A DNA stretch of 64,000 nt from a bacterium GBS-1 (lineage in GTDB: Bacteria > Synergistota > GBS-1): the NCBI GenBank assembly GCA_001443005.1, contig LEKQ01000001.1:142792-206791 (forward strand). The letters run 5' to 3'. Shown one piece after another: positions 29,450 to 47,730 of the stretch (position 1 is its first letter; each line of letters opens with the position of its first letter). Below the pieces are notes generated by a model. The model saw nothing but the letters and a program-made list of their open reading frames with translations. It was not told the origin of the DNA and did no database searches. The position numbers were made by a program, and so were the translations under genes.

Positions 29450-29478
29450 TTTACATTGCGATGGTAATTTTGTAAAAT
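29450..29478 (+). promoter_or_regulatory. strong sigma70-like promoter (TTTACA-17-TGnTAAAAT) with embedded inverted repeat
   Basis: -35 TTTACA at 29450-55, a 17-nt spacer, and extended -10 TGTAAAAT at 29471-78. TTTACA and TGTAAA form an inverted repeat that brackets the spacer. Confidence 0.6.
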
Positions 29479-29519
29479 ATATATAAAAAACTACTACGTG
29501 CGTTAAAGGAGGGGGGACG

Positions 29520-29909
29520 ATGGCACGGTATTTAGCAGCACACTCAGAGGCCTGCAGTGGCTGCAAAACCTGTCAACTTATCTGTGCCCTAATTCACTTT
29601 AAGGAAAATAACCCTAAAAAGGGAGCGATCATCGTCAAGTCTAACTTACCTGAACCTGGGTTTAAGATAACAACTTGTACGCAATGCGGAGTTTGTGCAA
29701 GCGTATGTCCAGTAGAAGCTATATATGAAGAGAATGGAGTCTACAAAATAGACAGAGGGAAATGCATAGGCTGTTACGCTTGTGTAAGCGCTTGCCCAGA
29801 GGAAGCCATGGTAAGGCATCCTGCGGAAACTGCTCCTATAAAGTGCGACCTATGTGGAGAGTGCATTCCCTACTGTGGGCTTAACGTCCTTTACATAGCT
29901 CAGGTATAA
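29520..29909 (+). CDS. four-[4Fe-4S]-cluster ferredoxin (AorA-like electron-transfer subunit)
   Basis: Four CxxCxxCxxxC(P) motifs in 129 aa. Lies immediately upstream of the AOR gene. Confidence 0.8.
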   Translation: MARYLAAHSEACSGCKTCQLICALIHFKENNPKKGAIIVKSNLPEPGFKITTCTQCGVCASVCPVEAIYEENGVYKIDRGKCIGCYACVSACPEEAMVRHPAETAPIKCDLCGECIPYCGLNVLYIAQV

Positions 29910-29939
29910 GGGGGGGAATTAAATATGTTAGGAGGATAT

Positions 29940-31754
29940 ATGAATAAGGTATTAAGGATAAATCTAACAACTGGAGAAATAAGAACAGAACCCCTTGATC
30001 TTAACATGGCAAGAAAGTTCTTAGGTGGAAGAGGTTTTGCCTCTTATACCCTTTACAAGGAGTTAAAAAAGGGAATAGATCCATTAGGCCCAGAAAATAA
30101 GCTGATAATGGCATCTGGCCCTCTTGCAGGTTTATTCCATCCTTGCAGCAGCAAGATCACATTCGCAGCAAAGTCTCCTCTAACTGGAATCTACGGAGAT
30201 AGTAATATGGGAGGTCATCTAGCAGCGGAGCTTAAATACGCTGGTTATGATATGGTAATATTCGAGGGATCCTCAAACAAGCCCGTTTATATAGTTATAG
30301 ATGACGATAAGGTTGAAATTAGGGATGCTTCCCATCTCTGGGGTAAGGGGACAATTGAAACAGAAAAGCAGCTTAAGGATGAGCTTGGAGATGATTTCCA
30401 AATAGCAGTCATAGGACCAGCGGGAGAAAATTTAGTTAAGGTGGCTATAATAAGACACGATTTCGGTAGAGAATCAGGAAGGACTGGTGTGGGTGCAGTT
30501 ATGGGGTCCAAAAAAATAAAAGCTATAGCGGTTCGAGGCACTAAAAGCATACCAGTAGCTGATTTCGATGAATACCTTAGGATTGGTAAAGAGATGTTCA
30601 AATCTTTAATGTCAAGTCCTATATTCCCAGAATTTCAAAGGTATGGAACCACAATGGTTGTAGATTGGGTAAATGAAATAGGAGCATTCCCAACAAGGAA
30701 CTTCGCTACAGGCTATCATGAAAATTACAAAGAGCTAAATGGAACCGCAATGAAGGAAAGAGTCTGGATCCATGACAAGGCTTGTGGTTTCTGCCCCATA
30801 GCTTGCGGAAACTACTCTCGAGTGGAGTATAAAGGAAAAACGTATTACGTAGAGGGACCCGAATATGAAACCATAGGTATGATTGGCGGATGCTGTGTGA
30901 TGCCATCCATATACGAGGTAACTTACGGAAATTATGTTTGTGATAACCTCGGCTTAGATACTATTTCCACAGGTGCGATAATAGCCTTCGCTTACGAATG
31001 TTACGAAAAGGGAATAATAACTAAAAATGATACCAATGGGCTCGAATTGAGATGGGGAGATATAGAATCCTTTGCAAAGCTTGCTGAGATGATCGCAAAG
31101 AGAGAGGGAATAGGAAACATATTAGCTGAAGGAGTTAAGAAGGCCGCTGAAAGTTTCGGTAAAGACTCTATAAAATTCGCCATGCAAGTAAAGGGTATGG
31201 AAATAAGCGCTTATGAATCCCACTGGGCACCTGCTATGCTCCTAGCATACGCTACATGCGATATTGGAGCACATCATAATAGAGCTTGGGCTATAACATA
31301 TGATATAGAAGTAGGAAGAGAGAAGATCACAAAGGACAAAGCTGAAAGGGTTGTGTTCCTGCAACATGCAAGGCCCATGTTCGATGCTCTCGGGGTGTGC
31401 AGGCTGACATGGGTCGAATGCGGATTAAACCTGGAATATTATGCTAAAATCTACAGTGCAGTAACTGGATGGGAAACTACTTTAAACGACCTCCTTAAAT
31501 GCGCTGAGAGAGCCTGGAACCAAAACAGGCTATTTGCCATAAGAGAGATTCCCGATTTCGGAAGGAAATATGATTACCCACCAGCAAGGTGGATGGAAGA
31601 ACCAGCCATAAGCGGACCAACGAAGGGCAGGCTCATTCCTAAAGAAGACGTAGATAAACTACTTGACTTCTACTACGAAGTTAGAGGTTGGGATAAATAT
31701 GGTAGACCTACTCCTGAAAAAATAAAAGAGTTAGAACTGGAGGTGACAGAGTAA
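29940..31754 (+). CDS. aor: tungsten-containing aldehyde:ferredoxin oxidoreductase (AOR family)
   Basis: AOR N-terminal and catalytic domains (NKVLRINLTTGEI; GRESGRTG; DxxCGxC region). ATG at 29940 has TTAGGAGGATAT SD; the track start at 29925 is an upstream in-frame ATG. Confidence 0.9.
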   Translation: MNKVLRINLTTGEIRTEPLDLNMARKFLGGRGFASYTLYKELKKGIDPLGPENKLIMASGPLAGLFHPCSSKITFAAKSPLTGIYGDSNMGGHLAAELKYAGYDMVIFEGSSNKPVYIVIDDDKVEIRDASHLWGKGTIETEKQLKDELGDDFQIAVIGPAGENLVKVAIIRHDFGRESGRTGVGAVMGSKKIKAIAVRGTKSIPVADFDEYLRIGKEMFKSLMSSPIFPEFQRYGTTMVVDWVNEIGAFPTRNFATGYHENYKELNGTAMKERVWIHDKACGFCPIACGNYSRVEYKGKTYYVEGPEYETIGMIGGCCVMPSIYEVTYGNYVCDNLGLDTISTGAIIAFAYECYEKGIITKNDTNGLELRWGDIESFAKLAEMIAKREGIGNILAEGVKKAAESFGKDSIKFAMQVKGMEISAYESHWAPAMLLAYATCDIGAHHNRAWAITYDIEVGREKITKDKAERVVFLQHARPMFDALGVCRLTWVECGLNLEYYAKIYSAVTGWETTLNDLLKCAERAWNQNRLFAIREIPDFGRKYDYPPARWMEEPAISGPTKGRLIPKEDVDKLLDFYYEVRGWDKYGRPTPEKIKELELEVTE

Positions 31755-31755
31755 T

Positions 31756-31779
31756 GGGAAGGGGAAAAAACCCCTTCCC
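31756..31779 (+). terminator. GC-rich hairpin after aor (weak terminator or processing/stability element)
   Basis: GGGAAGGGG-AAAAAA-CCCCTTCCC stem-loop with no clear U-tract. It sits 11 nt before the next start. Confidence 0.4.
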
Positions 31780-31790
31780 ATTACATTAAC

Positions 31791-32018
31791 ATGGCGATAA
31801 AGATTAGAACTGGAGGGCTAACTCTTAAAAGATATATCCCAGATATCTATTATGTAGATATAGATTCGCCCCTTACCGTTAGAGATCTACTCACTAAACT
31901 TGGCATACCTGAAGGACTAATCGCTGGGGTAATCATAGATGGTAAAATAGTAGATAAGTCATACGAGATTAAGGATGGACAGGAAATCGTTCTAATGCCG
32001 CCTATCTCAGGAGGTTAA
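31791..32018 (+). CDS. MoaD/ThiS-family ubiquitin-like sulfur-carrier protein (C-terminal GG)
   Basis: 75 aa ending ...LMPPISGG, with the beta-grasp pattern IIDGKIV...IKDGQEIVLMPP. Confidence 0.75.
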   Translation: MAIKIRTGGLTLKRYIPDIYYVDIDSPLTVRDLLTKLGIPEGLIAGVIIDGKIVDKSYEIKDGQEIVLMPPISGG

Positions 32019-32024
32019 ACAGTA

Positions 32025-33170
32025 TTGAGAAGTTCCGCGGAAGCGGTTATCATCGGTGGAGGAGTTCAAGGCTGCTCACTGGCTTATAACCTCGCTAAAA
32101 GGGGATGCAAGAACGTAGTTTTAGTTGAACAAAAATTCTTAGCCTACGGAGGAACGGGAAGATCGGGCGGGGGAGTAAGACATCAATTTGGAACAGAGAT
32201 AAATTGCAGACTTGCTATCTATAACGTGAAGTGTTTCGAATACTTACAAGATGAATTAGGTTACAAGGAAAGCATAGAGTTTGAACAGGGAGGTTATCTT
32301 TGGATAGCTTATACTGAGCGCCAGCTGGAACAGCTTAGAAAAAACGTTAAGCTCCAGAATAGCTTAGGTATACCCTCCATGCTCTTATCTCCCACAGATA
32401 TAAAAGAATTAATCCCCCAAATCAACCTGGATGGGATAATAGGAGGCAGCTTCTGTGAAAAGGATGGACATATAAATCCATTCCATGTCACATTAGCTTA
32501 CGCTGAAGCTGCAAAAAGGCTCGGTGTTGAGATAAACACTTACACTAAAGTTATAGGAATAAAACTAAAGGGAAATACAATAGATGGGGTATATACTGAC
32601 AAAGGATTTATATCTACCCCCATAGTTGTTAACTGCGCTGGTCCCTGGGGTAAGGAAATAGCCAAACAGATTGGTATCGAAATTCCCCTATATTCTGAAA
32701 GACACCAAATACTAGTCACAGAACCAGTAGAAAGAACGCTAAGAAGCCTTATACTATGTTTAGACGATGGATCTTACTGGAAGCAAACACCGCATGGTAA
32801 CTTTATGCTCGGGATAGGAAACCCAAACGAGGCTAAGGGCTTCAACATGAGTTCGAGTTGGCAATTTCTTGAAGAAGCTTCAAGGAAAATAGTGAAAAAG
32901 ATGCCAATATTATCAAACCTCAGGGTTATAAGACAATGGGCAGGCCTATACGACATAACTCCTGACTCTCAAGCTATTTTAGGACCAACTAAGATAAATG
33001 GATTTTACCTTAATCTTGGATGGAGTGGTCATGGCCTTCAGTTCGCTCCATCCATAGGAAGGGCTTTATCTGAGCTTATACTTGGCGAAAAACCTTTCAT
33101 TGATATAAGTCCATTTTACATTGAAAGATTTGAAAACGGAAAGCTCATTCCTGAACCTGCTTGCATCTAG
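32025..33170 (+). CDS. FAD-dependent oxidoreductase, DAO family (sarcosine/glycine oxidase beta-like)
   Basis: AVIIGGGVQGCSLAYNLAKRG dinucleotide fold and the GTGRSGGGVRHQ motif typical of SoxB/ThiO/ProDH-beta enzymes. Confidence 0.75.
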   Translation: MRSSAEAVIIGGGVQGCSLAYNLAKRGCKNVVLVEQKFLAYGGTGRSGGGVRHQFGTEINCRLAIYNVKCFEYLQDELGYKESIEFEQGGYLWIAYTERQLEQLRKNVKLQNSLGIPSMLLSPTDIKELIPQINLDGIIGGSFCEKDGHINPFHVTLAYAEAAKRLGVEINTYTKVIGIKLKGNTIDGVYTDKGFISTPIVVNCAGPWGKEIAKQIGIEIPLYSERHQILVTEPVERTLRSLILCLDDGSYWKQTPHGNFMLGIGNPNEAKGFNMSSSWQFLEEASRKIVKKMPILSNLRVIRQWAGLYDITPDSQAILGPTKINGFYLNLGWSGHGLQFAPSIGRALSELILGEKPFIDISPFYIERFENGKLIPEPACI

Positions 33171-33196
33171 GGGTGATATGATTTTAACAAGAGGTG

Positions 33197-34180
33197 ATGC
33201 ATTTGCTTATCATTAGGAAGTCAGACATTGAAAAAGCCATAACGATGAGTGATGCTATTAAAGCCATAAGAAGAGGATTTGCAACCTTCTCCAAAGGGAG
33301 AGCAATTGTTCCATTAAGGATACCCATAAGCATAGAAAAGAATACCGTTCTATTTATGCCAGGAGCCCTAACGGACGAGAAAAAAGTTGGTATTAAGGTC
33401 GTTTCTGTATATCCCCAGAATATAGAGAGCAACTTACCCCTGATACATGCAGCAATCCTTCTCATAGATGGGGAAAAAGGCATACCTAAGGCTTTAATAG
33501 AAGGAGGTTACGTTACAGCTATAAGAACAGGAGCTGCAGGCGGTGTCGCAGCTGACCTTCTAGCGAGAAAAGATGCAGAGGTCGCTTTCGTTTTTGGAGC
33601 TGGTGTTCAAGGAAGAAGCCAGCTCGAAGCTTTATGTGCTGTTAGGAACATAAAGCTCGCTTATGTATACGACATAGATTCGACTAAAGCTAAAATCTAT
33701 GAAACAGAGATGAAAGAAAAGCTTGGAATAGAAGTAAGGTTCGTTAAAAACTATGAGCGATTCATTCCCGAAGCTGACATTATAGTCACCGCAACACCAT
33801 CCAGAGAACCTTTTTTAAAAGGTGAGCTTCTCAAAGAGGGAGTTCACATAAACGCCATAGGTTCTCACACAACAGATATGAGCGAACTAGACACGAGTGT
33901 CTTCAAAAGAGCCTCGATTATAGCGGTCGACTCAAAAGAAGCAGTTCTTAAAGAAGCAGGGGAAGTTATAAATGCTATTAAAGCCTCTGTAATTAGAGAA
34001 AAAGACTTAATCGAAATCGGAGAGATAATAAACGACCCATCTAAGTCTAGGAAGCATGAAAGGGAAATAACTATTTTTAAGACCGTAGGTATAGCTATAG
34101 AAGATGTAGTAGTTGGAGAGCTTATATATGAAAAAGCCAAAGAAAAGAGCGTTGGAATAGAAATAAAGGACTTTTTCTGA
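33197..34180 (+). CDS. ornithine cyclodeaminase / mu-crystallin family protein
   Basis: Mu-crystallin Rossmann pattern (VFGAGVQGRSQLEAL) and OCD-family N-terminus. Confidence 0.8.
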   Translation: MHLLIIRKSDIEKAITMSDAIKAIRRGFATFSKGRAIVPLRIPISIEKNTVLFMPGALTDEKKVGIKVVSVYPQNIESNLPLIHAAILLIDGEKGIPKALIEGGYVTAIRTGAAGGVAADLLARKDAEVAFVFGAGVQGRSQLEALCAVRNIKLAYVYDIDSTKAKIYETEMKEKLGIEVRFVKNYERFIPEADIIVTATPSREPFLKGELLKEGVHINAIGSHTTDMSELDTSVFKRASIIAVDSKEAVLKEAGEVINAIKASVIREKDLIEIGEIINDPSKSRKHEREITIFKTVGIAIEDVVVGELIYEKAKEKSVGIEIKDFF

Positions 34181-35884: not shown

Positions 35885-36616
35885 ATGTGGTATAAAGCTG
35901 ACCTCCACGTTCATACGGTGCTTTCGGCCTGTGCGGACTGGGAAATGACCCCAACCAACATAGTGCACAGAGCCAAGGAGGTAGGGTTAAACATATTAGC
36001 TATTACTGATCACAATACCGTTAAGAATGTGGGAGCAGGCATTAGAGCAGGTCAAAGAGAAAACATCTTGGTTATACCAGGTGTGGAGATACAAACGAAA
36101 GAAGAAGTCCATATAATAGCTCTTTTCCCCTCTGAAGAAAAAGCCCTCGCGTTTGAAGAATGGTTAAAACCCCTCTTGCCTAATTTAAACAATGATGAGG
36201 ATCTCTTTGGAGTCCAAGTTGTAGTAGATGAAGAAGACAACGTAGTAGAGATAGATAAGAGATTACTCCAAATCTCTGCTAATGCTTCAATAGAGGAAGT
36301 TATGCTTAAAGTGAAGCAACTGGATGGAGTGGCTTATCCAGCTCACATAAACAGAGATTTTTGTGGAATTATACCCACCCTAGGTTTTATTCCCCCTGAT
36401 CTCCCATTTAAAATACTCGAAATTAACCATAACACTGATCTTTCATCTTTCCTCAAAACCCATCCAGAGTTAAACGATTACGTAATATTAATTTCATCAG
36501 ATGCACATTTTCTATCATCTATAGGAAACTCAAGAACGGCCATATACCTACGAAATTTAAGCTCCAGCGAGTTAATTGAAGCAATTCAAGACAAAAGGAG
36601 GGTTAAAGTATGGTAA
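35885..36616 (+). CDS. PHP-domain phosphoesterase
   Basis: DLHVHTVLSACAD...ILAITDHN is the PHP metal-binding signature. Confidence 0.75.
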   Translation: MWYKADLHVHTVLSACADWEMTPTNIVHRAKEVGLNILAITDHNTVKNVGAGIRAGQRENILVIPGVEIQTKEEVHIIALFPSEEKALAFEEWLKPLLPNLNNDEDLFGVQVVVDEEDNVVEIDKRLLQISANASIEEVMLKVKQLDGVAYPAHINRDFCGIIPTLGFIPPDLPFKILEINHNTDLSSFLKTHPELNDYVILISSDAHFLSSIGNSRTAIYLRNLSSSELIEAIQDKRRVKVW

Positions 36617-37083
36617 AATTATCAAAAGAGAAGCTTGATAAAGTTGAAACCATATTGGATCGCTTTCCTAAAGGGCAGTCATCGTTAATAGGGGCTCTTC
36701 ATGCAATACAGCTTGAAATAGGTTATCTTCCAGAGGAAGTCCAAAAGCTTGTGGCTGAAAAACTTGAAATTCCAGAAAGCACCGTCTACGGTGTTGTAAC
36801 ATTTTACAACTTTTTCCGTAAAGAACCCGTCGGAAAGTATATAATAACCGCTTGTCAGGGAACAGCTTGTCACGTGAGGGGAGCAGGAAGCGTAATCGAA
36901 GCTTTCGAAAAAACCCTAGGAATAAAGGTAGGGCATACAACACCAGATGGAAAGTTTACGCTTGACATAGCAAGATGTTTCGGCGCATGTGGATTAGCAC
37001 CTGTTGTTATGGTCAATAACGATATATATGGAAGGATGAGCCCAAAGAAGGTAGAAGAAGTAATAGCAAAATACAGAGATTAA
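36610..37083 (+). CDS. NuoE/HoxE/HydC-like [2Fe-2S] thioredoxin-fold subunit (copy 1)
   Basis: CQGTACH...CFGACGLAPV four-Cys pattern of NuoE/HndA. Confidence 0.85.
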   Translation: MVKLSKEKLDKVETILDRFPKGQSSLIGALHAIQLEIGYLPEEVQKLVAEKLEIPESTVYGVVTFYNFFRKEPVGKYIITACQGTACHVRGAGSVIEAFEKTLGIKVGHTTPDGKFTLDIARCFGACGLAPVVMVNNDIYGRMSPKKVEEVIAKYRD

Positions 37084-37634
37084 TGGAGGAACTATCTCTA
37101 CACCTAATAGACTTAATTGAAAACTCTATAAGCGCTAAAGCCTCTTTAATAAAGATCCTTATCGAAGTAAGTAAATCAAACGATCTAATAAAGATAGTTA
37201 TAGAAGATAACGGAGAGGGTATGAATGAAGAGGAAATCGAAAAGGCAAAAGATCCATTCTTCACAACCAAAAAGAACAAAAAAGTTGGTTTAGGTATTCC
37301 TATATTTGCTCAAATTGTTGAGTCTTGCGGAGGAAGATTTGAAATCGTTAGCCAAAAGGGGAAGGGAACAAAAGTCAACGCTGAGATGAAGCTTAGTCAC
37401 ATAGATCGCCCCCCATTGGGAGATCTCGCTTCAACCTTATTCACATCTATAATAGGGCACCCTGATGTAGACTTTTTAATAAAGATAAAGACTGATGAAG
37501 GAATCGTTGAGATCAACACAGCAGAAATTAAAGAGTTTTTGGGGGAAAGCTCCTTCAACCATCCTGAGGTTATAATCTTTTTAAGAGAGAACATTGATAG
37601 AGAAATAAAAGGCATACTGAAAGGAGGTATATAA
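37083..37634 (+). CDS. histidine-kinase-like ATPase (HATPase_c only) associated with hydrogenase operon
   Basis: N/G1/G2 boxes (IEDNGEGM; GLGIP). No sensor or DHp domain. Conserved position after NuoE, as in bifurcating hydrogenase operons. Confidence 0.7.
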   Translation: MEELSLHLIDLIENSISAKASLIKILIEVSKSNDLIKIVIEDNGEGMNEEEIEKAKDPFFTTKKNKKVGLGIPIFAQIVESCGGRFEIVSQKGKGTKVNAEMKLSHIDRPPLGDLASTLFTSIIGHPDVDFLIKIKTDEGIVEINTAEIKEFLGESSFNHPEVIIFLRENIDREIKGILKGGI

Positions 37635-37985
37635 ATGAAGATTGAGGAGCTCAGGAAACTCAGAGAAAAGGTGAGGGAAGACCTTAAATTAAGGGAAGGA
37701 ATAGAACCTAGAGTAAAGATTATAGTTAGCATGGGGACATCTGGAATAGCTGCAGGAGCAAGAGAGGTATTAAAAGCCTTGTTAGACGAGGTAGCAAAGA
37801 GGGAATTAAAGGATGTGATTGTACTACAAACGGGAGAAAAGGGATTAGCATCAGCTGAACCAATAGTAGAGGTTGTTACTAAAGAGGCTACAATAACCTA
37901 CGGTAGAGTAACACCAGAAATCGCGAGAAAGATTGTTATTGAGCATGTGATAAACGGAAGGGTTCTATCCGAATATGTAATATAA
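37635..37985 (+). CDS. thioredoxin-like ferredoxin-fold protein (HndB-like), cysteine-free
   Basis: 116 aa with the HndB/NuoF N-terminal-domain pattern but no cysteines at all. Confidence 0.55.
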   Translation: MKIEELRKLREKVREDLKLREGIEPRVKIIVSMGTSGIAAGAREVLKALLDEVAKRELKDVIVLQTGEKGLASAEPIVEVVTKEATITYGRVTPEIARKIVIEHVINGRVLSEYVI

Positions 37986-37986
37986 C

Positions 37987-40900
37987 ATGACCCTTAAAGG
38001 AGGCGGTGAGAAATTGCCTAAGAGAACTGACCTTCTAATATGTTTGGGAGCGGGTTGCGTTTCCTCGGGCAGTGAGCTTATAAAGAAAAAGCTTGAAGAA
38101 AAAATAAGAGAAAAAGGACTTGAGAATGAAGTAAGAATTATAGGTACAGGTTGCATGGGTCCTTGTGAAAGGGGACCCGTTATAATGATATACCCAGAGG
38201 GGGTATTTTACCAGAGGATAACCTTAGAAGATGTCGACACTATCGTTGAACAGCATCTGCTTAAAGGGAAGATCGTTGAAAAGCTTCTCCCCAAGGAAGA
38301 ATTAGCCCCAAGCATTAAAGAAAAAGAAATTCCATTCTTCACCAAACAGAAGAAGATAGTTTTATCTAACTGCGGTATTATAGATCCAGAGAAGATAGAA
38401 GAATACATAGCGGTAAACGGATACGAAGCTTTAGCCCGCGTTCTTGAAGGCATGACTCCAGAGCAAGTTATAGCAGAAATAGAAAAGTCTGGATTAAGAG
38501 GCAGAGGTGGCGCCGGATTTCCTACAGGAGCTAAATGGAAGTTTGTGAGAAACGCCCAAGGCAAGCCTAAATTCGTCGTATGTAACGCTGACGAAGGAGA
38601 CCCGGGTGCCTTTATGGACAGAGCGGTATTGGAAGGAGACCCTCACGCTGTCTTAGAGGGAATGCTTATCGCCGCTTATGCCGTAGGAGCGGAGCAAGGG
38701 TACATCTACGTGAGAGCTGAGTATCCCTTAGCCATAAAGAGGCTTCAAATAGCTATAGACCAAGCTCGTAAGTACGGATTCTTAGGGAAGAACATACTGG
38801 ATACGGACTTCTCCTTTGATATAGAGCTCAGAATCGGAGCTGGAGCTTTCGTCTGTGGAGAGGAAACAGCTTTACTTGCCTCCATAGAGGGTAAAAGAGG
38901 CATGCCAAGATCAAAGCCTCCATTTCCAGCAACTCATGGACTTTGGGGTAAACCTACCTTGATAAACAACGTAGAAACCTATGCCAACGTGAGGCATATT
39001 ATACTTAACGGTGCAGACTGGTTTAGAAGTTTTGGAACCCCATCATCTCCTGGAACAAAAGTATTCGCCCTATCTGGAAAGGTTAGGAACACAGGCTTAA
39101 TAGAAGTTCCCATGGGGACAACTCTTGGAGAGATTGTTTTCGACATAGGGGGCGGAATAATAGGAGATAGAAAGTTTAAGGCTGCACAAACGGGAGGTCC
39201 TTCAGGAGGTTGCTTGACTGTTAAGCACCTTAACCTACCGTTAGATTATGAATCTGTGAAAGAAGCAGGAGCAATAGTTGGCTCAGGCGGACTCATAGTC
39301 GTCGATGAAACTACATGCATGGTTGAACTTGCTCGTTACTTTCTAGAATTCTGTCAAGAAGAATCCTGTGGCAAATGTACACCATGCAGAGTAGGAACTA
39401 AAAAGATGCTCGAGATCCTTGAAAGAATAATTCATGGAAAAGGAACACTTGAAGACTTAGATAGGCTTGAGGAAATTGGAATGTGGGTTCAGCAAACCGC
39501 TCTCTGTGGATTAGGGCAAACGGCTCCCAACCCAGTCCTAAGCACTCTTAAATACTTCAGAGACGAATATGAAGCACATATTATAGATAAAAGATGTCCA
39601 GCTGGGGTCTGTGCCGACCTATTTATAGCTCCTTGCGAAAACGCTTGCCCAGCTCACGTGGACGTCCCAGCCTACATAGCTCACATCTCAGAAGGGAGAT
39701 TCAAGGAGGCCTTCTACGTACACATAAAGAATAATCCGTTCCCATCGGTATGCGGTAGAGCTTGTCCAGCACGCTGTGAAAGCTATTGTAGAAGACTTCA
39801 GGTAGATGAATCCATAGCGATAAGACAGCTCAAGAGATTTATGGCAGATAAGGCTATTGAGGAAAAGTGGGAGCTTCCTAAACCTGAAAGATATAACGGC
39901 AAGAAAGTGGCCATAGTTGGAGCTGGTCCTGCAGGATTAAGCGCAGCTTACTTCCTCAACCTTAAAGGATATAAGGTCACCGTCTTCGAAGCCCTTCCTG
40001 AACCTGGAGGAACCCCTACTCACTATATCCCTGAATATCGTCTACCAAAGGAAATAATCCTGGAAGAGGTAAGAAGAATAGAGAGATCTGGAGTCGAGAT
40101 AAGGGTCAATCACCCAATAACTGATTTAGAAGCCCTTAGAAAAGACTATGACGCAGTTTTCTTAGCGTGTGGAAGCATGAAAGAGACGAAGCTTAACGTT
40201 CCTGGAGAGAACCTGAAGGGAGTCCTAAGTGGCATGGAATTCCTAGGTAAAGTCAAGAAGGGAGAGAAGCCAGATATAGGCAAGAAAGTAGTAGTCATAG
40301 GAGGAGGAAACACAGCTATCGATGCTGCAAGAACGGCTTGGAGATTGGGAGCAGACGTTCATGTTATCTATAGAAGAACGAGAGATGAAATGCCAGCCCT
40401 TCATGAAGAAATAGAGGAAGCAGAAAGAGAGGGAATAAAGTTCACGTTCCTTGCAACACCAGTTAAGTTCCTAGAGGAAGATGGAAGGGTTAGAGCTGTT
40501 AGATGTATAAGCATGAAACTTGGAGAGTTTGACTCAACTGGTAGAAGAAAACCCATACCGATAGAAAACTCGGAATTCGATGTAGAAGCTACAAGCGTCA
40601 TAGTAGCAGTTGGACAAAGAGCTGACCTCGCGTTTAAGGTAGATGGTCTTGAACTAACCAGTTGGGGAACTATAAAGGTTGACCTAAGAACGCTTAAAAC
40701 CTCCTTGGAAGGGGTCTTCGCAGGCGGAGATGTTGTTCGTGGACCTTCAACAATCGTAGAAGCTGTAGCTGATGGAAGGTTAGCAGCTTCAATGATAGAC
40801 AAATACCTTGGTGGAGATGGTATACTATGGTACGAAAGTAGGGAATCAGTGAAAACCACATATAATGAGGAAGAATATCTCAAAACCCAGCCAAGGAGAA

Positions 40901-41040
40901 AGCCTGTTATCCTACCAGTAGATAGAAGAAGGAACTTCGCTGAGGTAGAAAAAACTTTCTTTGAAGGACAAGCTGTGGAAGAAGCAAGAAGATGTTTACA
41001 CTGTGACATAAAAGAGGAGGTCTTATTAGAAGAGGGGTGA
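37987..41040 (+). CDS. NuoF-like flavoprotein fused to GltD-like NAD(P)H:FAD oxidoreductase (1017 aa)
   Basis: N-terminal 2Fe-2S Trx-like domain (CLGAGC...CMGPCERGP). NuoF core (GLRGRGGAGFPTG; ESCGKCTPCR). GltD-type Fe-S region (CPAHVD...CGRACPARCE). Two dinucleotide folds (VAIVGAGPAG; VVVIGGGNTAIDAA). Confidence 0.85.
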   Translation: MTLKGGGEKLPKRTDLLICLGAGCVSSGSELIKKKLEEKIREKGLENEVRIIGTGCMGPCERGPVIMIYPEGVFYQRITLEDVDTIVEQHLLKGKIVEKLLPKEELAPSIKEKEIPFFTKQKKIVLSNCGIIDPEKIEEYIAVNGYEALARVLEGMTPEQVIAEIEKSGLRGRGGAGFPTGAKWKFVRNAQGKPKFVVCNADEGDPGAFMDRAVLEGDPHAVLEGMLIAAYAVGAEQGYIYVRAEYPLAIKRLQIAIDQARKYGFLGKNILDTDFSFDIELRIGAGAFVCGEETALLASIEGKRGMPRSKPPFPATHGLWGKPTLINNVETYANVRHIILNGADWFRSFGTPSSPGTKVFALSGKVRNTGLIEVPMGTTLGEIVFDIGGGIIGDRKFKAAQTGGPSGGCLTVKHLNLPLDYESVKEAGAIVGSGGLIVVDETTCMVELARYFLEFCQEESCGKCTPCRVGTKKMLEILERIIHGKGTLEDLDRLEEIGMWVQQTALCGLGQTAPNPVLSTLKYFRDEYEAHIIDKRCPAGVCADLFIAPCENACPAHVDVPAYIAHISEGRFKEAFYVHIKNNPFPSVCGRACPARCESYCRRLQVDESIAIRQLKRFMADKAIEEKWELPKPERYNGKKVAIVGAGPAGLSAAYFLNLKGYKVTVFEALPEPGGTPTHYIPEYRLPKEIILEEVRRIERSGVEIRVNHPITDLEALRKDYDAVFLACGSMKETKLNVPGENLKGVLSGMEFLGKVKKGEKPDIGKKVVVIGGGNTAIDAARTAWRLGADVHVIYRRTRDEMPALHEEIEEAEREGIKFTFLATPVKFLEEDGRVRAVRCISMKLGEFDSTGRRKPIPIENSEFDVEATSVIVAVGQRADLAFKVDGLELTSWGTIKVDLRTLKTSLEGVFAGGDVVRGPSTIVEAVADGRLAASMIDKYLGGDGILWYESRESVKTTYNEEEYLKTQPRRKPVILPVDRRRNFAEVEKTFFEGQAVEEARRCLHCDIKEEVLLEEG

Positions 41041-41047
41041 TTAAAGC

Positions 41048-41512
41048 ATGATTGGAGAGATCCTGAAGAGGTTCGAGCCGAGGAGAGAGAATCTATTGGA
41101 TATACTTCATGCCATGCAAGAAGCATCACCCACCAACAGCCTTTCAAAAGAAGACATAGAAGCTGTTGCTAAGTATGTCGGTATAACACCAGCAGAAGTC
41201 TGGGGAACCGCTACATTTTACTCCATGTTCTCTGTCAAACCTAGAGGAAAGTACGTAATAAGGGTCTGTACCTCACCAGCTTGTCATCTATTAGGAGGAG
41301 AAAGCGTCTTAGAAGCACTTAAAAGGGAACTGGGAATCGATGTAGGAGAAACGACGAAGGACGGAGTTTTCACACTGGAAACCTCGAGCTGCTTAGGAAT
41401 TTGCGGTGTAGCTCCGGCTATGATGATAGATGAAATAGCATATGGGAACCTCACCCCTGAGAAAATTAAAGAGATAATTCTTAGCTATAGAAAGAGGGGA
41501 GAAGAATCATGA
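41048..41512 (+). CDS. NuoE/HydC-like [2Fe-2S] subunit (copy 2)
   Basis: CTSPACH...CLGICGVAPA four-Cys motif. Confidence 0.85.
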   Translation: MIGEILKRFEPRRENLLDILHAMQEASPTNSLSKEDIEAVAKYVGITPAEVWGTATFYSMFSVKPRGKYVIRVCTSPACHLLGGESVLEALKRELGIDVGETTKDGVFTLETSSCLGICGVAPAMMIDEIAYGNLTPEKIKEIILSYRKRGEES

Positions 41513-43074
41513 TAAGAATAGAAAGGGCGCATATTCTCGTCGGCATAGATCAGGGCTCGATCTTAGCTGGAGCAAGGGACGTCCAAAAAAAGCTCGAGGA
41601 AGAGATTAAAAAGCGCGGTCTTGAAACCGAAATAAGAGTCCTTGAAACGGGAAGCCTTGGAATAACAGGAAGGGGAGTCGTTCTTCTAGTTTACCCCGAA
41701 GGCGTATATTACGTTAACGTAAAAGTTGAGGATGTTCCAGAAATAGTGGAAGAACACCTGCTTAAGGGCAGATTCGTTAAACGTCTCATGCTCGAACCTC
41801 AACTGGCAGAAATCCTCGCTAAAGGAGAGTTTCCTAAAAAACTCTCAAAGCAAAAAAGGGTGGTTCTTCAAAATGCAGGTGTTATAAATCCAGACAGCAT
41901 AGAAGAATACATTGCTGTTGGAGGATACGAAGCTTTAGCTAAGGCTCTTGAGTCATCTCCAGAGTGGGTTATAAACGAAATAGATAACTCAGGCTTAAGA
42001 GGCAGAGGTGGTGCTGGATTCCCAACAGGGAAGAAATGGAAGTTCACTGCTGAAGTTAAAGCTCCTCAGAAGTTCATAATATGTAATGCAGATGAAGGAG
42101 AACCAGGTACTTTCAAAGATAGGCTTATACTTGAAGGTGATCCTCACAAGGTCCTTGAAGGCATGGCCATCGCAGGCTACGCAGTAGGTGCAAACAAGGG
42201 CTATCTCTATATAAGAGGTGAATATGACCTGTCTATTCGTAGGATAAGCAAAGCTATAGAAGATGCTTATAAGATGGGATTACTTGGTGATAACGTATTG
42301 GATAGCGGCTTTTCCTTCCATGTGGAAATTAAGAAGGGAGCAGGTGCCTATGTATGCGGAGAGGAAACGGCCTTAATAGAGTCTATAGAGGGGAAGAGGG
42401 GAAATCCTCGTCCCAAACCACCTTACTACCCTGGTATAAAGGGACTTTGGGGGTATCCTACAGTGGTAAATAACGTTGAAACCTTAGCTAATGTCCCTCC
42501 AATAATACTGAACGGAGCAAGTTGGTTTAAGAGTATGGGAACGAAGGAATCCCCAGGCACCAAGGTTTACACCATCTTAGGACATGTTAAAGAACCAGGG
42601 TTAATAGAAGTAGAAATGGGAACAACGCTTAGAGAAGTTATCTTTGAGTTTGGTAAGGGAATGAGAAATAATAGAGAATTCAAAGCTGCACTAATAGGGG
42701 GAGCGGCGGGAGCTTTCTTAGGGAAAGAAGCCCTTGATATCCCTCTATCCTATGAAGGTCTTAGGGAGTATGGGGGAGTCTTAGGATCAGGAGCTATCCT
42801 TGTGCTTGATGACTCGACATCAATCACCGATATGCTACAAAACGTGATATCCTTCTTCAAACATGAAAGTTGCGGGAAGTGTGTCCCGTGCCGAGTAGGA
42901 ATTACTAAGCTACTTGAAAGGATGGAGAAAGGTACCCTACTTGAAAAAGATCTCAAGGAAATGATAGAGATATCAGAAAAGATGGCCGATACAGCACTTT
43001 GTGCTTTAGGCCAATCGTTAATTCTTCCCGTATCAAGTGCAGTCCGTTTCTTCAAAGAAGAACTTACAGCATAG
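41509..43074 (+). CDS. NuoF/HydB-like NADH-binding flavoprotein subunit (copy 2)
   Basis: GLRGRGGAGFPTGKKW and ESCGKCVPCR. The N-terminal Trx-like domain lacks Cys and there is no C-terminal ferredoxin domain. Confidence 0.85.
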   Translation: MIRIERAHILVGIDQGSILAGARDVQKKLEEEIKKRGLETEIRVLETGSLGITGRGVVLLVYPEGVYYVNVKVEDVPEIVEEHLLKGRFVKRLMLEPQLAEILAKGEFPKKLSKQKRVVLQNAGVINPDSIEEYIAVGGYEALAKALESSPEWVINEIDNSGLRGRGGAGFPTGKKWKFTAEVKAPQKFIICNADEGEPGTFKDRLILEGDPHKVLEGMAIAGYAVGANKGYLYIRGEYDLSIRRISKAIEDAYKMGLLGDNVLDSGFSFHVEIKKGAGAYVCGEETALIESIEGKRGNPRPKPPYYPGIKGLWGYPTVVNNVETLANVPPIILNGASWFKSMGTKESPGTKVYTILGHVKEPGLIEVEMGTTLREVIFEFGKGMRNNREFKAALIGGAAGAFLGKEALDIPLSYEGLREYGGVLGSGAILVLDDSTSITDMLQNVISFFKHESCGKCVPCRVGITKLLERMEKGTLLEKDLKEMIEISEKMADTALCALGQSLILPVSSAVRFFKEELTA

Positions 43075-43089
43075 GAGGTGTTTAATACT

Positions 43090-44928
43090 GTGAGAGAGGT
43101 AAAACTCAAGATAGACGGAAAGGAAGTTATAGCAACAGAAGGCATGACAATACTTGAAGCAGCAAGAAAGGCTGGTTTTGAAATTCCTACTCTTTGCTAT
43201 CACGATGGATTATCTGCACATGGTGGATGCAGACTCTGTGTAGTCGAAGTTAAAGGTTCTCCAAGGCTTCTAACAAGCTGTACCACCCCTGTAACCAACG
43301 GAATGGAGGTATCTATAAACACAGACCGTGTTAAAGAGGCTCGTAAATTCGTAATGAACCTTATAATGACCGAAAGAAACCACTTCTGCATGTTCTGCGA
43401 AAAAAGCGGAAGATACGAAGAAACCGATTGTGAACTTCAAAAGAGAGCTTACGAAGTCCAGATAGAACACTTCCCGTTCCCAGTATATGTTAATAAATAT
43501 CCAATAGACACAACGTCACCAGTTATGGTAATGGACCACAACCGTTGCATACTCTGTGGCAGATGTGTTAGAGTCTGTTCGGAAGTCGTAGCTAACTCAA
43601 CCTTAGACTTCAGCTTCAGAGGTTCAAAAGCCTTGATAGCTTCAGATACAGGCTTGAACAGGGGGGAATCAAGCTGCATATCCTGTGGAGCTTGCATGCA
43701 AGTATGTCCTGCGGGAGCGTTGTTCAGCAAGTTTGGAGGATATAAAGGAAAGAAGAGCTTGTGCGAAAAGATAGAAACATTCTGCCCCATATGTGGTGTC
43801 GGTTGTGAAACAACCAACTATGTGCGTTATAACAACATAGTTGAGATAGAGGGAAGCGGTCTGGCTAAGGGAAACTTAGATGGAGGGCAGCTCTGCGAAA
43901 AAGGAAGATACGGTCCCTTGATGGAAACGAGGAACAGGATATCTCTTCCGCTCCTTAGGGATTCCAGAGGAAGATTTGTAGAAAGTAGCTACCAGGAAGC
44001 AATAAACAAAAGTATACAGCTGCTTAAAGCCTATTCCCCAGACAAGATAGTCTTCAGAGTCTCTTCCTTCCTACCAGCGGAAGACCTAGCCTACATAAAA
44101 GGGTTCGCTCTCAAGCTTGGAGTAAAAGATATAGACACCTTCGATGGAGAAATATATAGGAATTTGATATCTTTCGATTACCCTAAAGCGAACTACGAAG
44201 ACATCCTTAACTCAGACCTAATCATACTTGTGGGTGGCGACATTGTGAAAGAACATGGAGTGGTTGGATCTTACATAAGGAGAGCCGTTAGGAATAAAGG
44301 CGCTGAATTAATCATAATCTCTCCAGCAGAAAGCAAGATGGATAGATTCTCCAAGGAGGTAAGGAGAGTTGCGGAAGGCAGTGAAGGTTCAGTCGTCAAA
44401 GAATATGAGGAGAAAATAAGGAAAGCTTCTAACCCAGTGATAATTCTTGAGGGCGCTTATCTTCTTAAAAACAGGGAAGCAATAGAATCATGGCTTAAAT
44501 TCGCTGAAGCGTCAAAGGTTAAAACTCTACCTCTACCCCCCACAGGTAACAGCTTAGCAGCTTGGAAGCTAGGTATATCGTCTAAATCCAACGAGAATAC
44601 AGAATCCGGAAAACTTCTTTTCCTCATCCTCGGAGATATAGATTCTAGCTACTCACCCGCATCCTTAGCTGAGCTAGGCTTCGAAGCAATAATACTCCAT
44701 GGAGCTTATATAGACCCGATGATGAAGCTAGCTGATGTCGTTTTGCCTGGAAAAAGTTGGCTTGAAAATGAAGGAACATATAAGCTAATAAGCGGAGAAG
44801 TTAAGAAGTTTACGCCTATACTCCGGGCAGAAAAGGATGCGAAGAGCCCAAGGGAGCTACTTTCTGAGCTTGCAGACGCCTTAAGATTAGGTAAAATTGA
44901 TATAGATAGTTTAATTACAAGTTTGTAA
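43090..44928 (+). CDS. NuoG/HydA-like Fe-S subunit (2Fe-2S + 4Fe-4S N-terminus, truncated molybdopterin-like C-domain)
   Basis: CYHDGLSAHGGCRLCVV; CILCGRCVRVC; CISCGACMQVCP. No H-cluster motifs. GTG at 43090 has AGGAGGTG upstream; the track start at 43078 overlaps the SD. Confidence 0.8.
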   Translation: MREVKLKIDGKEVIATEGMTILEAARKAGFEIPTLCYHDGLSAHGGCRLCVVEVKGSPRLLTSCTTPVTNGMEVSINTDRVKEARKFVMNLIMTERNHFCMFCEKSGRYEETDCELQKRAYEVQIEHFPFPVYVNKYPIDTTSPVMVMDHNRCILCGRCVRVCSEVVANSTLDFSFRGSKALIASDTGLNRGESSCISCGACMQVCPAGALFSKFGGYKGKKSLCEKIETFCPICGVGCETTNYVRYNNIVEIEGSGLAKGNLDGGQLCEKGRYGPLMETRNRISLPLLRDSRGRFVESSYQEAINKSIQLLKAYSPDKIVFRVSSFLPAEDLAYIKGFALKLGVKDIDTFDGEIYRNLISFDYPKANYEDILNSDLIILVGGDIVKEHGVVGSYIRRAVRNKGAELIIISPAESKMDRFSKEVRRVAEGSEGSVVKEYEEKIRKASNPVIILEGAYLLKNREAIESWLKFAEASKVKTLPLPPTGNSLAAWKLGISSKSNENTESGKLLFLILGDIDSSYSPASLAELGFEAIILHGAYIDPMMKLADVVLPGKSWLENEGTYKLISGEVKKFTPILRAEKDAKSPRELLSELADALRLGKIDIDSLITSL

Positions 44929-44949
44929 TCATTTAAGGAGGAGATTAAG

Positions 44950-45489
44950 TTGGCTAAGGTAAGGGTTGCCACTACATGGCTCGAGTGTTGTTCAGGATGT
45001 CACATGTCCATTCTAGACTTGGATGAAAAATTAGTTGACTTACTATCCAAGATAGAGTTCGATGCAAGTCCAATAACAGATATAAAAGAGTTTGGCGAAG
45101 TAGATGTGGGAATAGTAGAGGGTTCTGTCGGAAATGAAGAACAACTTGAGGTGCTGAAGAAGATACGCGAAAAGGCCAAAATCCTTATAGCCCTTGGTGA
45201 TTGTGCTTGTTTCGGAGGCATACCTGCCATGAGGAATTTCTTCAACAAAGATGAGGTGCTAAAGAGGGTCTACATCGAAACTGAAAGCACTGTTAACCCA
45301 AGCAAGGTTATACCAAGCTTAGATGTTCCTAAGATATTTCCAAGCGTTAAATCTATAGATCAATTTGTTAAGGTTGACGTTTATATACCCGGATGCCCAC
45401 CAGACCCAAGAGCTATAGAATACGCTATAAAGGAGCTCCTTGAAGGCAAGATACCCGTATTACCGCCAGAGCTCTTATCGTATGAATGA
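44950..45489 (+). CDS. [NiFe]-hydrogenase small subunit (group 3, HoxY/HydS-like)
   Basis: WLECCSGCHMS proximal cluster motif and GDCACFGG. 179 aa. Confidence 0.9.
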   Translation: MAKVRVATTWLECCSGCHMSILDLDEKLVDLLSKIEFDASPITDIKEFGEVDVGIVEGSVGNEEQLEVLKKIREKAKILIALGDCACFGGIPAMRNFFNKDEVLKRVYIETESTVNPSKVIPSLDVPKIFPSVKSIDQFVKVDVYIPGCPPDPRAIEYAIKELLEGKIPVLPPELLSYE

Positions 45490-45504
45490 GGAGGTGCTTG
45501 TTCT

Positions 45505-46932: not shown

Positions 46933-47384
46933 TTGCAGTAGTAGGATATGGAAACTACTTGAGAAAAGACGATGGCATAGGTCTGTGGCTTGGAAGCAGG
47001 TTAAGGCTAAAGTTTAAACAAAAAGTAAGAGTTTACCTTTTGCATCAGTTGGTACCTGAAATCGTTGAGGAGCTCAAGGAAGCCGATCACATAATATTCA
47101 TAGATGCTTCATCTTCAAATGAAGAGTGGTCATTAAGAAGGCTCAGTTTAGGGGAGGAAGAGTTTCAACCTCCCCTAAATTGTGATTTTCATACCTTCTA
47201 TCCGGAAGAGCTGGCTTATCTACTAAAAAGACTTTATGGGAAGAAGCCGGAAATCTGGATATTAAGCGTGAAAGGTGAGAATTTTTCTTTTGGGGCTGGC
47301 TTAAGCTTAAATGCACGAAGATTGGCAAAGGAAGCAGAAAACCTGCTTGAGGGATTGATAAGGGTGAAACTAAAAGATGCATGA
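46929..47384 (+). CDS. hydrogenase maturation endopeptidase (HoxW/HycI family); apparent CTG start overlapping hoxH stop
   Basis: The conserved N-terminus IAVVGYGNYLRKDDGIG lies upstream of the first TTG/ATG. In-frame CTG at 46929 is embedded in CTGA with the large-subunit stop. Confidence 0.7.
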   Translation: MIAVVGYGNYLRKDDGIGLWLGSRLRLKFKQKVRVYLLHQLVPEIVEELKEADHIIFIDASSSNEEWSLRRLSLGEEEFQPPLNCDFHTFYPEELAYLLKRLYGKKPEIWILSVKGENFSFGAGLSLNARRLAKEAENLLEGLIRVKLKDA

Positions 47385-47730
47385 GTTTTCTATCGCAGAG
47401 TCTTTAATGGAAATAGTTTTAGAGGAAGCAACAAAACACAGAGCTTCGAAAATACTCAGGGTAAAAATAAGAGCTGGAAAGCTGATGGGAATAGTTCCTG
47501 ACCTCTTAACCTTCGCATTTAAATCCCTCTCAGAGGAAACTATAGCTGAAGGGGCTGAACTTGAAATAGAAGAAATCCCTTTCCAGGGGAAATGCCGCAA
47601 TTGTGGTTTCTTCTTTAGCATAGGTGATTTCTTTGGTATATGTCCCCAATGTGGAAGCGATAACTTGGAAATAGAAGGGGGCAATGATTTAGAATTAGTC
47701 GGACTTGAGATCGAAAGGAGTGAAAATTAG
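47377..47730 (+). CDS. hypA: hydrogenase nickel insertion protein HypA
   Basis: MHEFSIAESL N-terminus and CxxC...CxxC zinc site (CRNCG...CPQCG). Confidence 0.9.
   Translation: MHEFSIAESLMEIVLEEATKHRASKILRVKIRAGKLMGIVPDLLTFAFKSLSEETIAEGAELEIEEIPFQGKCRNCGFFFSIGDFFGICPQCGSDNLEIEGGNDLELVGLEIERSEN

Follow-up and report, generated by a model that had tools for sequence, protein, structure and literature searches.

An operon combining a WorSL-type tungsten aldehyde oxidoreductase with an imino-acid module in a GBS-1 bacterium of the Synergistota, and its possible role in proline catabolism

Organization of the operon

The window analysed here is a stretch of 64,000 nucleotides (nt) from contig LEKQ01000001.1 of an uncultured, amino-acid-fermenting GBS-1 bacterium (Synergistota); window coordinates are used throughout. 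Gene identities were assigned from a list of its open reading frames (ORFs) and from Pfam and NCBIfam profile searches. Five ORFs, all on the plus strand, form a putative operon that codes a polyferredoxin small subunit (WorS), the catalytic subunit of a tungsten-pterin aldehyde oxidoreductase (AOR) named WorL, a MoaD/ThiS-like protein ending in Gly-Gly (GG protein), a flavoprotein of the DAO family and a protein of the OCD/mu-crystallin family (Table 1). These five identities and the gene positions had been put forward in the original prediction, made from the DNA letters, and both hold. From the comparisons described below the operon can be defined as a WorSL tungstoenzyme unit fused to an imino-acid module in a single lineage, a new combination of two parts that are each of a known kind.

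Table 1. Features of the window and of the metagenomic loci compared with it. Positions are window coordinates unless preceded by a locus name; aa, amino acids.
Feature	Position	Strand	Basis
Sigma-70-like promoter candidate, TTTACA-17-TAAAAT	29450..29478	+	10/12 consensus matches; in the 82-nt gap 5' of the operon
worS, polyferredoxin small subunit, 129 aa, four [4Fe-4S] motifs	29520..29909	+	PDB and Pfam matches
worL, tungsten-pterin aldehyde oxidoreductase catalytic subunit, 609 aa	29925..31754	+	AFOR_N and AFOR_C; neighbour-joining tree
Stem-loop covering the worL stop codon	31751..31784	+	14-bp stem, -26.7 kcal/mol, z = -8.2 versus shuffles
MoaD/ThiS-like beta-grasp protein, 75 aa, carboxyl-terminal GG	31791..32018	+	Pfam ThiS, 39 bits
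DAO-family FAD dehydrogenase, 381 aa, proline-dehydrogenase beta type, TTG start	32025..33170	+	PF01266, 245 bits
OCD/mu-crystallin family NAD(H) enzyme, 328 aa, LhpI-like	33194..34180	+	PF02423, 245 bits
NuoE/F/G-like modules, [NiFe] hydrogenase small and large subunits, HypA, HypB	36610..48396	+	Pfam
wtpCBA, tungstate ABC transporter	49038..51842	-	NCBIfam WtpA 422 (cut-off 355), WtpC 491 (440), WtpB 319 (340)
AOR-ThiS cassette within remnants of a glutamate semialdehyde dehydrogenase gene	L136:6720-9411		Compare intact L138:3340-4974 and L139:3874-5508

The worS and worL genes are 15 nt apart. The DAO gene starts 6 nt past the stop codon of the GG protein gene, its Shine-Dalgarno (SD) sequence (GGAGG) lying within the GG codons of the latter, and 23 nt separate it from the OCD-like gene. 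The corresponding gaps in the sister genome bin L001 are 2 and 7 nt, although the proteins are merely 60-78% identical to those of the window. Proteins identical to the window AOR and ferredoxin are found in metagenome bins that bear the NCBI labels Synergistota and 'bacterium 42_11'. L001 and the contig L081 carry the five genes in the window order followed by the window's downstream genes, and the tight gene order is kept in sister genomes whose GG and OCD-like proteins are 60-61% identical to their window counterparts. Such coupling, maintained in the relatives, shows the DAO and OCD-like pair welded to the AOR accessory gene.

The promoter candidate upstream of worS is followed by an SD sequence (AAGGAGG), belongs to the region's four top-scoring sites and has a counterpart in L001 at the equivalent position (TTGCTT-17-TAAAAT). 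Promoter-like sites are not enriched in the region (17 observed versus 20.7 expected in shuffles), so that the strength announced for this candidate promoter is unproven. The hairpin noticed after the AOR gene is real and highly stable. It lacks a U-tract, and terminator prediction did not call a terminator at its position. L001 has a hairpin of other sequence (-22.4 kcal/mol) at the equivalent spot, which argues for a conserved structural element. It is probably an attenuator or stabiliser within the operon, across which the genes are presumably co-transcribed.

The stop codon of worL and the start codon of the GG protein gene (31752-31793) share a frame across a distance of 12 codons, and the hairpin lies in between. 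An AOR-MoaD read-through fusion was rejected, the MoaD-like gene of L001 being in another frame, and the shared frame is thus probably a coincidence. No Rfam family reaches its threshold anywhere in the window, which excludes a riboswitch or other known RNA there, and no tRNA genes were found in the window.

WorL belongs to a bacterial sister clade of FOR

The Pfam domains AFOR_N (279 bits) and AFOR_C (434 bits) together span residues 7-605 of WorL. Its alignment with the formaldehyde:ferredoxin oxidoreductase (FOR) of Pyrococcus furiosus matches the cluster cysteines C287, C290, C294 and C492 to C284, C287, C291 and C491, and the catalytic E315, Y430 and H451 to E308, Y416 and H437. FOR is also the best match among proteins of known structure (520 bits, 45% identity), ahead of P. 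furiosus AOR (AOR_Pf, 484 bits), Wor1L (425 bits), AorB (400 bits) and WOR5-L (260 bits). WorL is presumed to carry a tungsten bis-pyranopterin; the WtpABC genes in the window and the MoaD-like gene in the operon are indirect pointers to this cofactor.

A neighbour-joining tree was built with 78 related genomic AORs, WorL and four structural references (FOR, AOR_Pf, AorB and Wor1L), a reference set that does not hold WOR4, GAPOR or GOR. WorL groups with the sequences of loci L001-L006 (100% bootstrap). The sister clade, also at 100%, unites FOR with sequences from Desulfobacterales, Aminicenantes and Chloroflexota. The two clades join at 99% to form what is called here the FOR superclade, with AOR_Pf, AorB and Wor1L outside. 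WorL can therefore be placed in a bacterial sister clade of FOR and not within the subclade that holds FOR itself. AorB, 39% identical to WorL, clusters far from it with L059, L060, L067 and L077; tree and bootstrap rule out an AorB-type placement of WorL, and the phylogeny that was to sort the catalytic subunit among AOR clades puts it outside both AorB and AOR sensu stricto.

The FOR-type residues H450, R483 and R493 are present in WorL. Arg483 (Arg481 in FOR) is invariant in 20 of 20 FOR-superclade sequences, a basic residue occupying this position in 3% of 63 others, and the HH motif (GAHH) and Arg493 (Arg492 in FOR) are conserved as well. In the structure study of FOR, Arg481 reportedly contacts the distal carboxylate of glutarate. 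The FOR of Pyrococcus furiosus (PDB access codes 1B25 and 1B4N) is thus like WorL in its HH motif, in Arg481 and Arg492, in the catalytic Glu, Tyr and His and in the cluster cysteines. However, it is a homotetramer devoid of a small subunit, whereas the window enzyme has WorS and belongs to a separate clade.

The best substrates of FOR are reported to be C4-C6 di- and semialdehydes, with the lowest Km for the C5 dialdehyde and a high Km for formaldehyde. Glutarate was found in the crystallized enzyme's active site, and FOR is believed to have a part in breaking down basic amino acids. A 2025 structural paper still terms it 'of unknown function'.

WorS and the comparison with other multi-subunit tungstoenzymes

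WorS has four CxxCxxCxxxC motifs, at C12, C53, C82 and C109. It matches the small subunits Wor1S (9mqx_E, 2.7e-14) and WOR5-S (6x1o_B, 1.4e-10), AorA (8c0z_C, 9.9e-10) and also BamC, so that the homology to AorA anticipated for this ferredoxin is found and extends to Wor1S and WOR5-S. The match to AorA covers WorS residues 10-119. WorS ends ~10 residues beyond the stretch that aligns to AorA residues 44-156 and lacks the carboxyl-terminal assembly/filament helix of AorA.

The position of the WorS gene upstream of the AOR gene is kept in L001-L006 and L127-L131. This gives substance to the claim that the enzyme is unlike the single-subunit archaeal AOR. The catalytic subunit does fall on the side of the single-subunit archaeal FOR, as would be expected if the genes downstream of the hairpin formed an unrelated operon, but the small subunit is kept, the hairpin has no terminator tail and translational coupling links the downstream genes to that of the GG protein. 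The database contains proteins in which the polyferredoxin is fused to the amino terminus of the AOR (P0008, P0011, P0013, P0046, P0050, P0060 and P0062; 735-800 aa). They are 57-61% identical to the window AOR. Such natural fusions support a physical complex of WorS and WorL, and the enzyme can be assigned to the WorS plus WorL heterodimer type rather than to the lone archaeal form.

The architecture with a large (L) and a small (S) subunit is common to the window enzyme, to WOR5/ASOR of P. furiosus and to Wor1 (WorABCSL) of Acetomicrobium mobile, a member of the Synergistota like the window lineage; Wor1S is the best match of the window polyferredoxin. The large subunits WOR5-L and Wor1L lie, in contrast, outside the window clade, and the window operon has no BfuABC genes.

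Aromatoleum aromaticum AorABC with AorD/AorE likewise has the gene of a four-cluster polyferredoxin before the catalytic gene and MoaD-like accessories in the operon. It differs from the window operon, whose catalytic subunit is of another clade, whose polyferredoxin is shorter and in which there is no NAD-binding subunit of the AorC type. In a Burkholderiales locus (L067) the AorC orthologue belongs to the Pyr_redox_2 family (180 bits) and does not resemble the window DAO protein significantly (BLASTP best E 0.043), which rules out the latter as an AorC equivalent by homology. The analogy with AorABC drawn in the original prediction holds for the multi-subunit composition, the AorA-like polyferredoxin and the MoaD-like gene that stands beside the AOR gene as aorD does; it fails for the AorB clade and for the FAD subunit.

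The GG protein is a widespread companion of AORs

The GG protein ends in PPISGG. Its Pfam ThiS score is above the cut-off of 22.5 bits and its scores with the NCBIfam MoaD and ThiS models are all under their cut-offs (ThiS 16.7 versus 37.5). Of 80 related loci, 37, archaeal ones among them, have an ORF of 70-110 aa ending in GG that starts no more than a few hundred bases past the AOR gene, and a DAO gene is present in none of these. This recurrence bears out the expected synteny of a MoaD-like gene with the AOR gene, and indicates that the GG protein is not a thiazole ThiS. ThiS or SAMP2-like genes adjoin the AOR gene in L127-L137, and in L003 and L004 the GG protein gene is followed by a ThiF/MoeB-like gene, a follower present in AOR loci only. 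Aromatoleum aorD and aorE are regarded as coding maturation factors of the tungsten cofactor. The GG protein can accordingly be classed as a family-wide, AorD-like AOR accessory and is presumed, by analogy, to act in tungsten-cofactor maturation.

The flavoprotein and the OCD-family protein

The best structural match of the DAO protein is chain B of 1Y56 from Pyrococcus horikoshii (1.5e-76, 261 bits, residues 4-374), which is the catalytic beta subunit of the L-proline dehydrogenase of this archaeon. SoxB (1e-44, 156 bits) and glycine oxidase (5e-26) are weaker matches, and dimethylglycine dehydrogenases also match. Among the NCBIfam models, that of sarcosine oxidase beta scores best (208 bits versus a cut-off of 529). 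By its closest match it is a flavoprotein of the proline-dehydrogenase beta type. Its closest metagenomic relatives (50-57% identity) are found in alpha/beta/ferredoxin clusters of the proline-dehydrogenase type, while remoter ones (36-39%) recur in pairs with a gene of the OCD family, in surroundings without an AOR gene.

Two of the clusters with the closest relatives, from soda-lake sediment (L085:5824-9966 and L092:5738-9967), code also a 2Fe-2S protein, an FAD/NAD alpha subunit, a ferredoxin, a BFD-like protein, an SNF-family symporter and a PRK07475 Asp/Glu-racemase-like protein. No convincing alpha or Fe-S partners of proline dehydrogenase were found beside the window DAO gene: tblastn gave weak alpha matches (22-29%) to unrelated flavoprotein genes of the window. 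Genes for the proline dehydrogenase gamma and delta subunits, for a proline-racemase-family protein and for glutamate semialdehyde dehydrogenase (GSALDH) were not found in the window either.

The OCD-like protein has its best PDB match in the delta1-pyrroline-2-carboxylate (Pyr2C) reductase of Thermococcus litoralis (TlLhpI; 6t3e, 5.9e-85, 288 bits), followed by an archaeal alanine dehydrogenase (8e-58, 199 bits). It scores 243 bits against the NCBIfam model of Pyr2C/piperideine-2-carboxylate reductases, whose cut-off is 322. The published signature of ornithine cyclodeaminase comprises E56, D228 and K232 (Pseudomonas putida numbering), residues proposed to drive ornithine cyclisation. Alignments through TlLhpI and the alanine dehydrogenase AfAlaDH place L53, H225 and M229 of the window protein at these positions; L53 corresponds to L52 of TlLhpI, which has V224 and A228 where the window protein has H225 and M229. 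The window protein keeps R42, K68, R111 and an IED motif (the substrate tetrad R/K-K-R-D), the Rossmann motif GAGVQG and the NAD-specific D160. The name OCD homologue given to it in the original prediction is correct for its family (PF02423), but by its signature residues the protein is not a cyclodeaminase. A true ornithine cyclodeaminase, initiating a route from ornithine through proline to glutamate, was rejected on this ground and the first step of the pathway was recast as an imine reduction. The protein is probably an imine reductase or dehydrogenase.

In published proline and hydroxyproline loci, genes of the LhpI type cluster with genes of proline dehydrogenase and of the proline-racemase family. 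The Thermococcus and Pyrococcus clusters that code a dye-linked L-proline dehydrogenase (alpha/beta), LhpI and LhpH thus have the same two gene types as the DAO and OCD-like pair. The window differs in lacking the proline dehydrogenase alpha, gamma and delta genes and a proline-racemase-family gene, its pair being attached instead to a tungsten operon.

Association of FOR-type AORs with proline genes

The association between AORs and genes of the proline pathway rests on the ~90 loci whose gene context was examined. Proline-pathway neighbours are present in 5 of 18 FOR-superclade loci and in none of 60 others (Fisher p = 4e-4; p ~0.008 after collapse to independent lineages). Such genes stand beside FOR-superclade AORs in three or four independent lineages. 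The Desulfobacterales loci L011 and L018 code a trans-3-hydroxy-L-proline dehydratase of the Cys-Thr type (NF045511, 407 bits) and a DAO protein whose gene is divergent from AOR-MoaD, together with an OCD-like protein, a Liv-type ABC transporter and prolyl-tRNA synthetase. L004 and L006, members of the window clade, have an intact GSALDH gene (TIGR01236) 1.3 kb upstream of the polyferredoxin-AOR-MoaD genes.

The most direct case is L136 (JGI 3300028917, Ga0310070_1000650), in which the order of genes is GntR, a 64-aa ORF, AOR, ThiS, a 104-aa ORF, GltD/HdrA-like, CCG, proline dehydrogenase alpha-like and DAO. The two small ORFs correspond to GSALDH residues 1-43 (70% identity) and 383-463 (63% identity). 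L138 and L139 are collinear with L136, including the upstream cytochrome-c and ion-channel genes, with proteins 65-77% identical, and have at the AOR position an intact gene of a 544-aa GSALDH (797 and 778 bits; cut-off 614). Because the remnants flank the cassette and the collinear loci are intact, AOR-ThiS has taken the place of GSALDH inside a proline-dehydrogenase operon. L136 looks like an in-situ non-orthologous displacement. The recurrent proline association and this gene displacement make it probable that 'simply co-located', an alternative offered in the original prediction for an amino-acid catabolic pair of OCD and proline-dehydrogenase-like proteins beside aor, understates the link; the protein names given to the pair stand, apart from the missing cyclodeaminase triad.

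Naive ORF clustering of conserved neighbours at the other FOR-superclade loci was uninformative in high-GC contigs, and the literature searched yielded no link of AOR or FOR to delta1-pyrroline-5-carboxylate (P5C) or proline.

Other gene contexts were also observed. In L134 (4483-9029) and L135 (4428-9031), genes of a Liv-type ABC transporter and of a 2-oxoacid:ferredoxin oxidoreductase with four subunits border two paralogous divergent AOR-ThiS pairs, another amino-acid catabolic context for FOR-clade enzymes. The Chloroflexota loci of the FOR clade (L015:8896-10122, L023:4401-5644 and L027:8409-9746) code an aldehyde dehydrogenase of generic type, with 28-31% identity to GSALDH, just downstream of AOR-MoaD.

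Neighbouring hydrogenase and tungstate transport genes

A hydrogenase cluster lies 2.4 kb downstream of the operon. The gene order in the segment 34221-48396 begins with DRTGG, CBS+HATPase, DRTGG and PHP, then NuoE and a HATPase protein; a 1017-aa NuoF-GltD fusion comes next, followed by NuoE, NuoF, NuoG-like, the [NiFe] small and large subunits, a maturation protease, HypA and HypB. L001 has the same order from the start of the cluster through the first NuoE-like and HATPase genes, where its locus ends. The cluster resembles the Bfu/HydABCSL electron-bifurcating hydrogenase, and this hydrogenase is a plausible sink for reduced ferredoxin.

A WtpABC tungstate transporter is encoded 17 kb downstream on the opposite strand, as had been recognized. 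WtpA and WtpC score above the NCBIfam equivalog cut-offs and WtpB is slightly under its own. Cumulative GC skew climbs steadily to ~48 kb and then drops; the genes change from the plus to the minus strand at about the same place, near 49 kb.

A proposed pathway and its alternatives

The reading preferred here, as a tentative proposal with somewhat less than even odds, is that the operon converts Pyr2C or proline into P5C/glutamate semialdehyde and then into glutamate, the tungsten enzyme performing the aldehyde step and passing electrons to ferredoxin. The OCD-family enzyme would be an NAD(H) imine reductase of the LhpI type that turns Pyr2C (or piperideine-2-carboxylate) into L-proline (or L-pipecolate). 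The DAO flavoprotein would oxidise proline to P5C, which would open spontaneously to glutamate gamma-semialdehyde. WorL would then oxidise the semialdehyde (or the C6 homologue derived from pipecolate) to glutamate, replacing the NAD-dependent P5C/glutamate semialdehyde dehydrogenase. Electrons would pass by way of five [4Fe-4S] clusters, one in WorL and four in WorS, to ferredoxin and probably from there to the neighbouring hydrogenase, yielding hydrogen. For the higher-potential electrons of the flavoprotein, whose usual partners are missing, a direct contact between DAO and WorS might be possible. The substrate of each enzyme and the electron path are deduced from gene content and homology. 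That WorL oxidises the semialdehyde released by DAO is the most economical reading of the gene contexts combined with the published C5 preference of FOR, its bound glutarate and its supposed role in breaking down basic amino acids, and the other genomes suggest that this enzyme type oxidises glutamate semialdehyde.

The oxidation of aldehydes provides low-potential electrons. PutA, or proline dehydrogenase with P5C/glutamate semialdehyde dehydrogenase (TIGR01236), performs the same chemistry as proposed here, the dehydrogenation of an imino acid and the oxidation of a semialdehyde. The difference lies in the aldehyde step, attributed here to a ferredoxin-reducing tungsten-pterin enzyme and not to an NAD-dependent aldehyde dehydrogenase, for which the L136 displacement is the sole direct support. 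The DpkA-AmaA-AmaB route of Pseudomonas has the same sequence of an imine reductase, an imino-acid dehydrogenase and the conversion of a semialdehyde into a dicarboxylic amino acid.

A wider extension of the proposal, which has to be regarded with some doubt, is that FOR-type enzymes, archaeal FOR included, would be the ferredoxin-dependent P5C oxidoreductases of anaerobes, replacing NAD-dependent P5C dehydrogenase in the degradation of proline, hydroxyproline and ornithine. The glutarate of the FOR crystal would then mimic glutamate, and in the window lineage DAO might dock on WorS, channelling substrate and pooling electrons.

Several observations weigh against the proposed pathway. The closest AOR relatives (L127-L132, 59-61% identity) have no DAO or OCD neighbours and the closest DAO relatives have no AOR, from which it follows that the five-gene fusion is limited to one lineage. 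The displacement in L136 was observed once and might be an insertion that disrupted the GSALDH gene without the AOR being functionally equivalent, while the intact GSALDH gene beside the AOR in L004 and L006 means that GSALDH replacement is not general. The window DAO protein is 27-29% identical to the beta subunits of the L136 and L138 operons, being thus of a different DAO subfamily, and lacks the alpha and Fe-S proteins with which its nearest relatives are associated. For these reasons its substrate could be an L- or D-imino acid, an opine or an N-methyl amino acid. The hairpin after worL could end most transcripts.

The two modules might alternatively be independent and share no more than a transcript, WorSL being a broad aldehyde scavenger of amino-acid fermentation, the part ascribed to AOR, and DAO with the OCD-like protein a self-contained pair that delivers no aldehyde to the AOR, for instance in a D-proline to Pyr2C to L-proline conversion or in opine or imino-acid processing. 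Each module is found alone in many genomes, OCD-DAO pairs with GntR and ABC transporter genes and no AOR are common, and FOR-clade AORs also stand beside 2-oxoacid:ferredoxin oxidoreductases and Liv transporters; the T. litoralis study itself weighs the D-proline to L-proline route. Independence is nevertheless rather unlikely, as it leaves unexplained why proline neighbours occur with the FOR superclade only, why AOR-ThiS replaced GSALDH in L136 and why the tight coupling is kept in sister genomes. Formaldehyde is another candidate aldehyde, if DAO were an N-demethylase of the sarcosine type whose product is oxidised to formate by the FOR-like enzyme. The sarcosine oxidase beta model and the dimethylglycine dehydrogenase matches of DAO point in this direction, as do the in vitro oxidation of formaldehyde by FOR and the N-methylalanine dehydrogenase activity reported for the T. 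litoralis OCD homologue. Since the soxB score is far under its cut-off, the proline dehydrogenase beta structure fits better (261 versus 156 bits), the Km values of FOR disfavour formaldehyde and the L136/L138 evidence favours glutamate semialdehyde, this activity is improbable.

It is as hard to defend a three-component complex like AorABC in which DAO docks on the polyferredoxin as a non-homologous AorC substitute and links its clusters to the flavin. The composition is equal (four-cluster ferredoxin, AOR, FAD protein and MoaD-like protein), and a DAO protein without its usual partners needs a redox partner, for which the operon offers a four-cluster protein. However, DAO is dissimilar to the AorC orthologue, the AOR is outside the AorB clade, the 129-aa ferredoxin is without the AorA assembly helix, and no other genome of the clade (L127-L132 and relatives examined) has a FAD gene in the operon. 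The reading of the GG protein and DAO as a ThiS-ThiO pair for thiazole (thiamine) synthesis, which the original prediction had also considered, is effectively refuted. It could draw on the Pfam ThiS match of the small protein and on a weak ThiO match of the DAO protein, whose score is 119.5 for a cut-off of 250.8, with the NCBIfam ThiS score likewise insufficient. No thiG, thiF or thiH was found in the region around the operon, and both the GG ORF in loci without DAO and the ThiF/MoeB-like follower go with AOR.

Significance

To our knowledge, bacterial enzymes of the WOR family number in the thousands, and for the majority no substrate has been assigned. The gene contexts described here yield a specific hypothesis, the oxidation of P5C/glutamate semialdehyde by FOR-superclade enzymes. 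If wrong, the operon would still be a clean unit of WorSL and a MoaD-like protein, and the small GG protein a family-wide accessory of AORs. If true, a whole clade of tungstoenzymes would gain a physiological role, and a central enzyme of amino-acid catabolism would have undergone non-orthologous displacement. Proline oxidation would then provide low-potential reduced ferredoxin, so that amino-acid fermentation in Synergistota, Desulfobacterota and possibly Thermococcales would have another balance of energy and hydrogen. The operon and the L136 displacement turn the old question of the function of FOR-type enzymes into a direct experiment.

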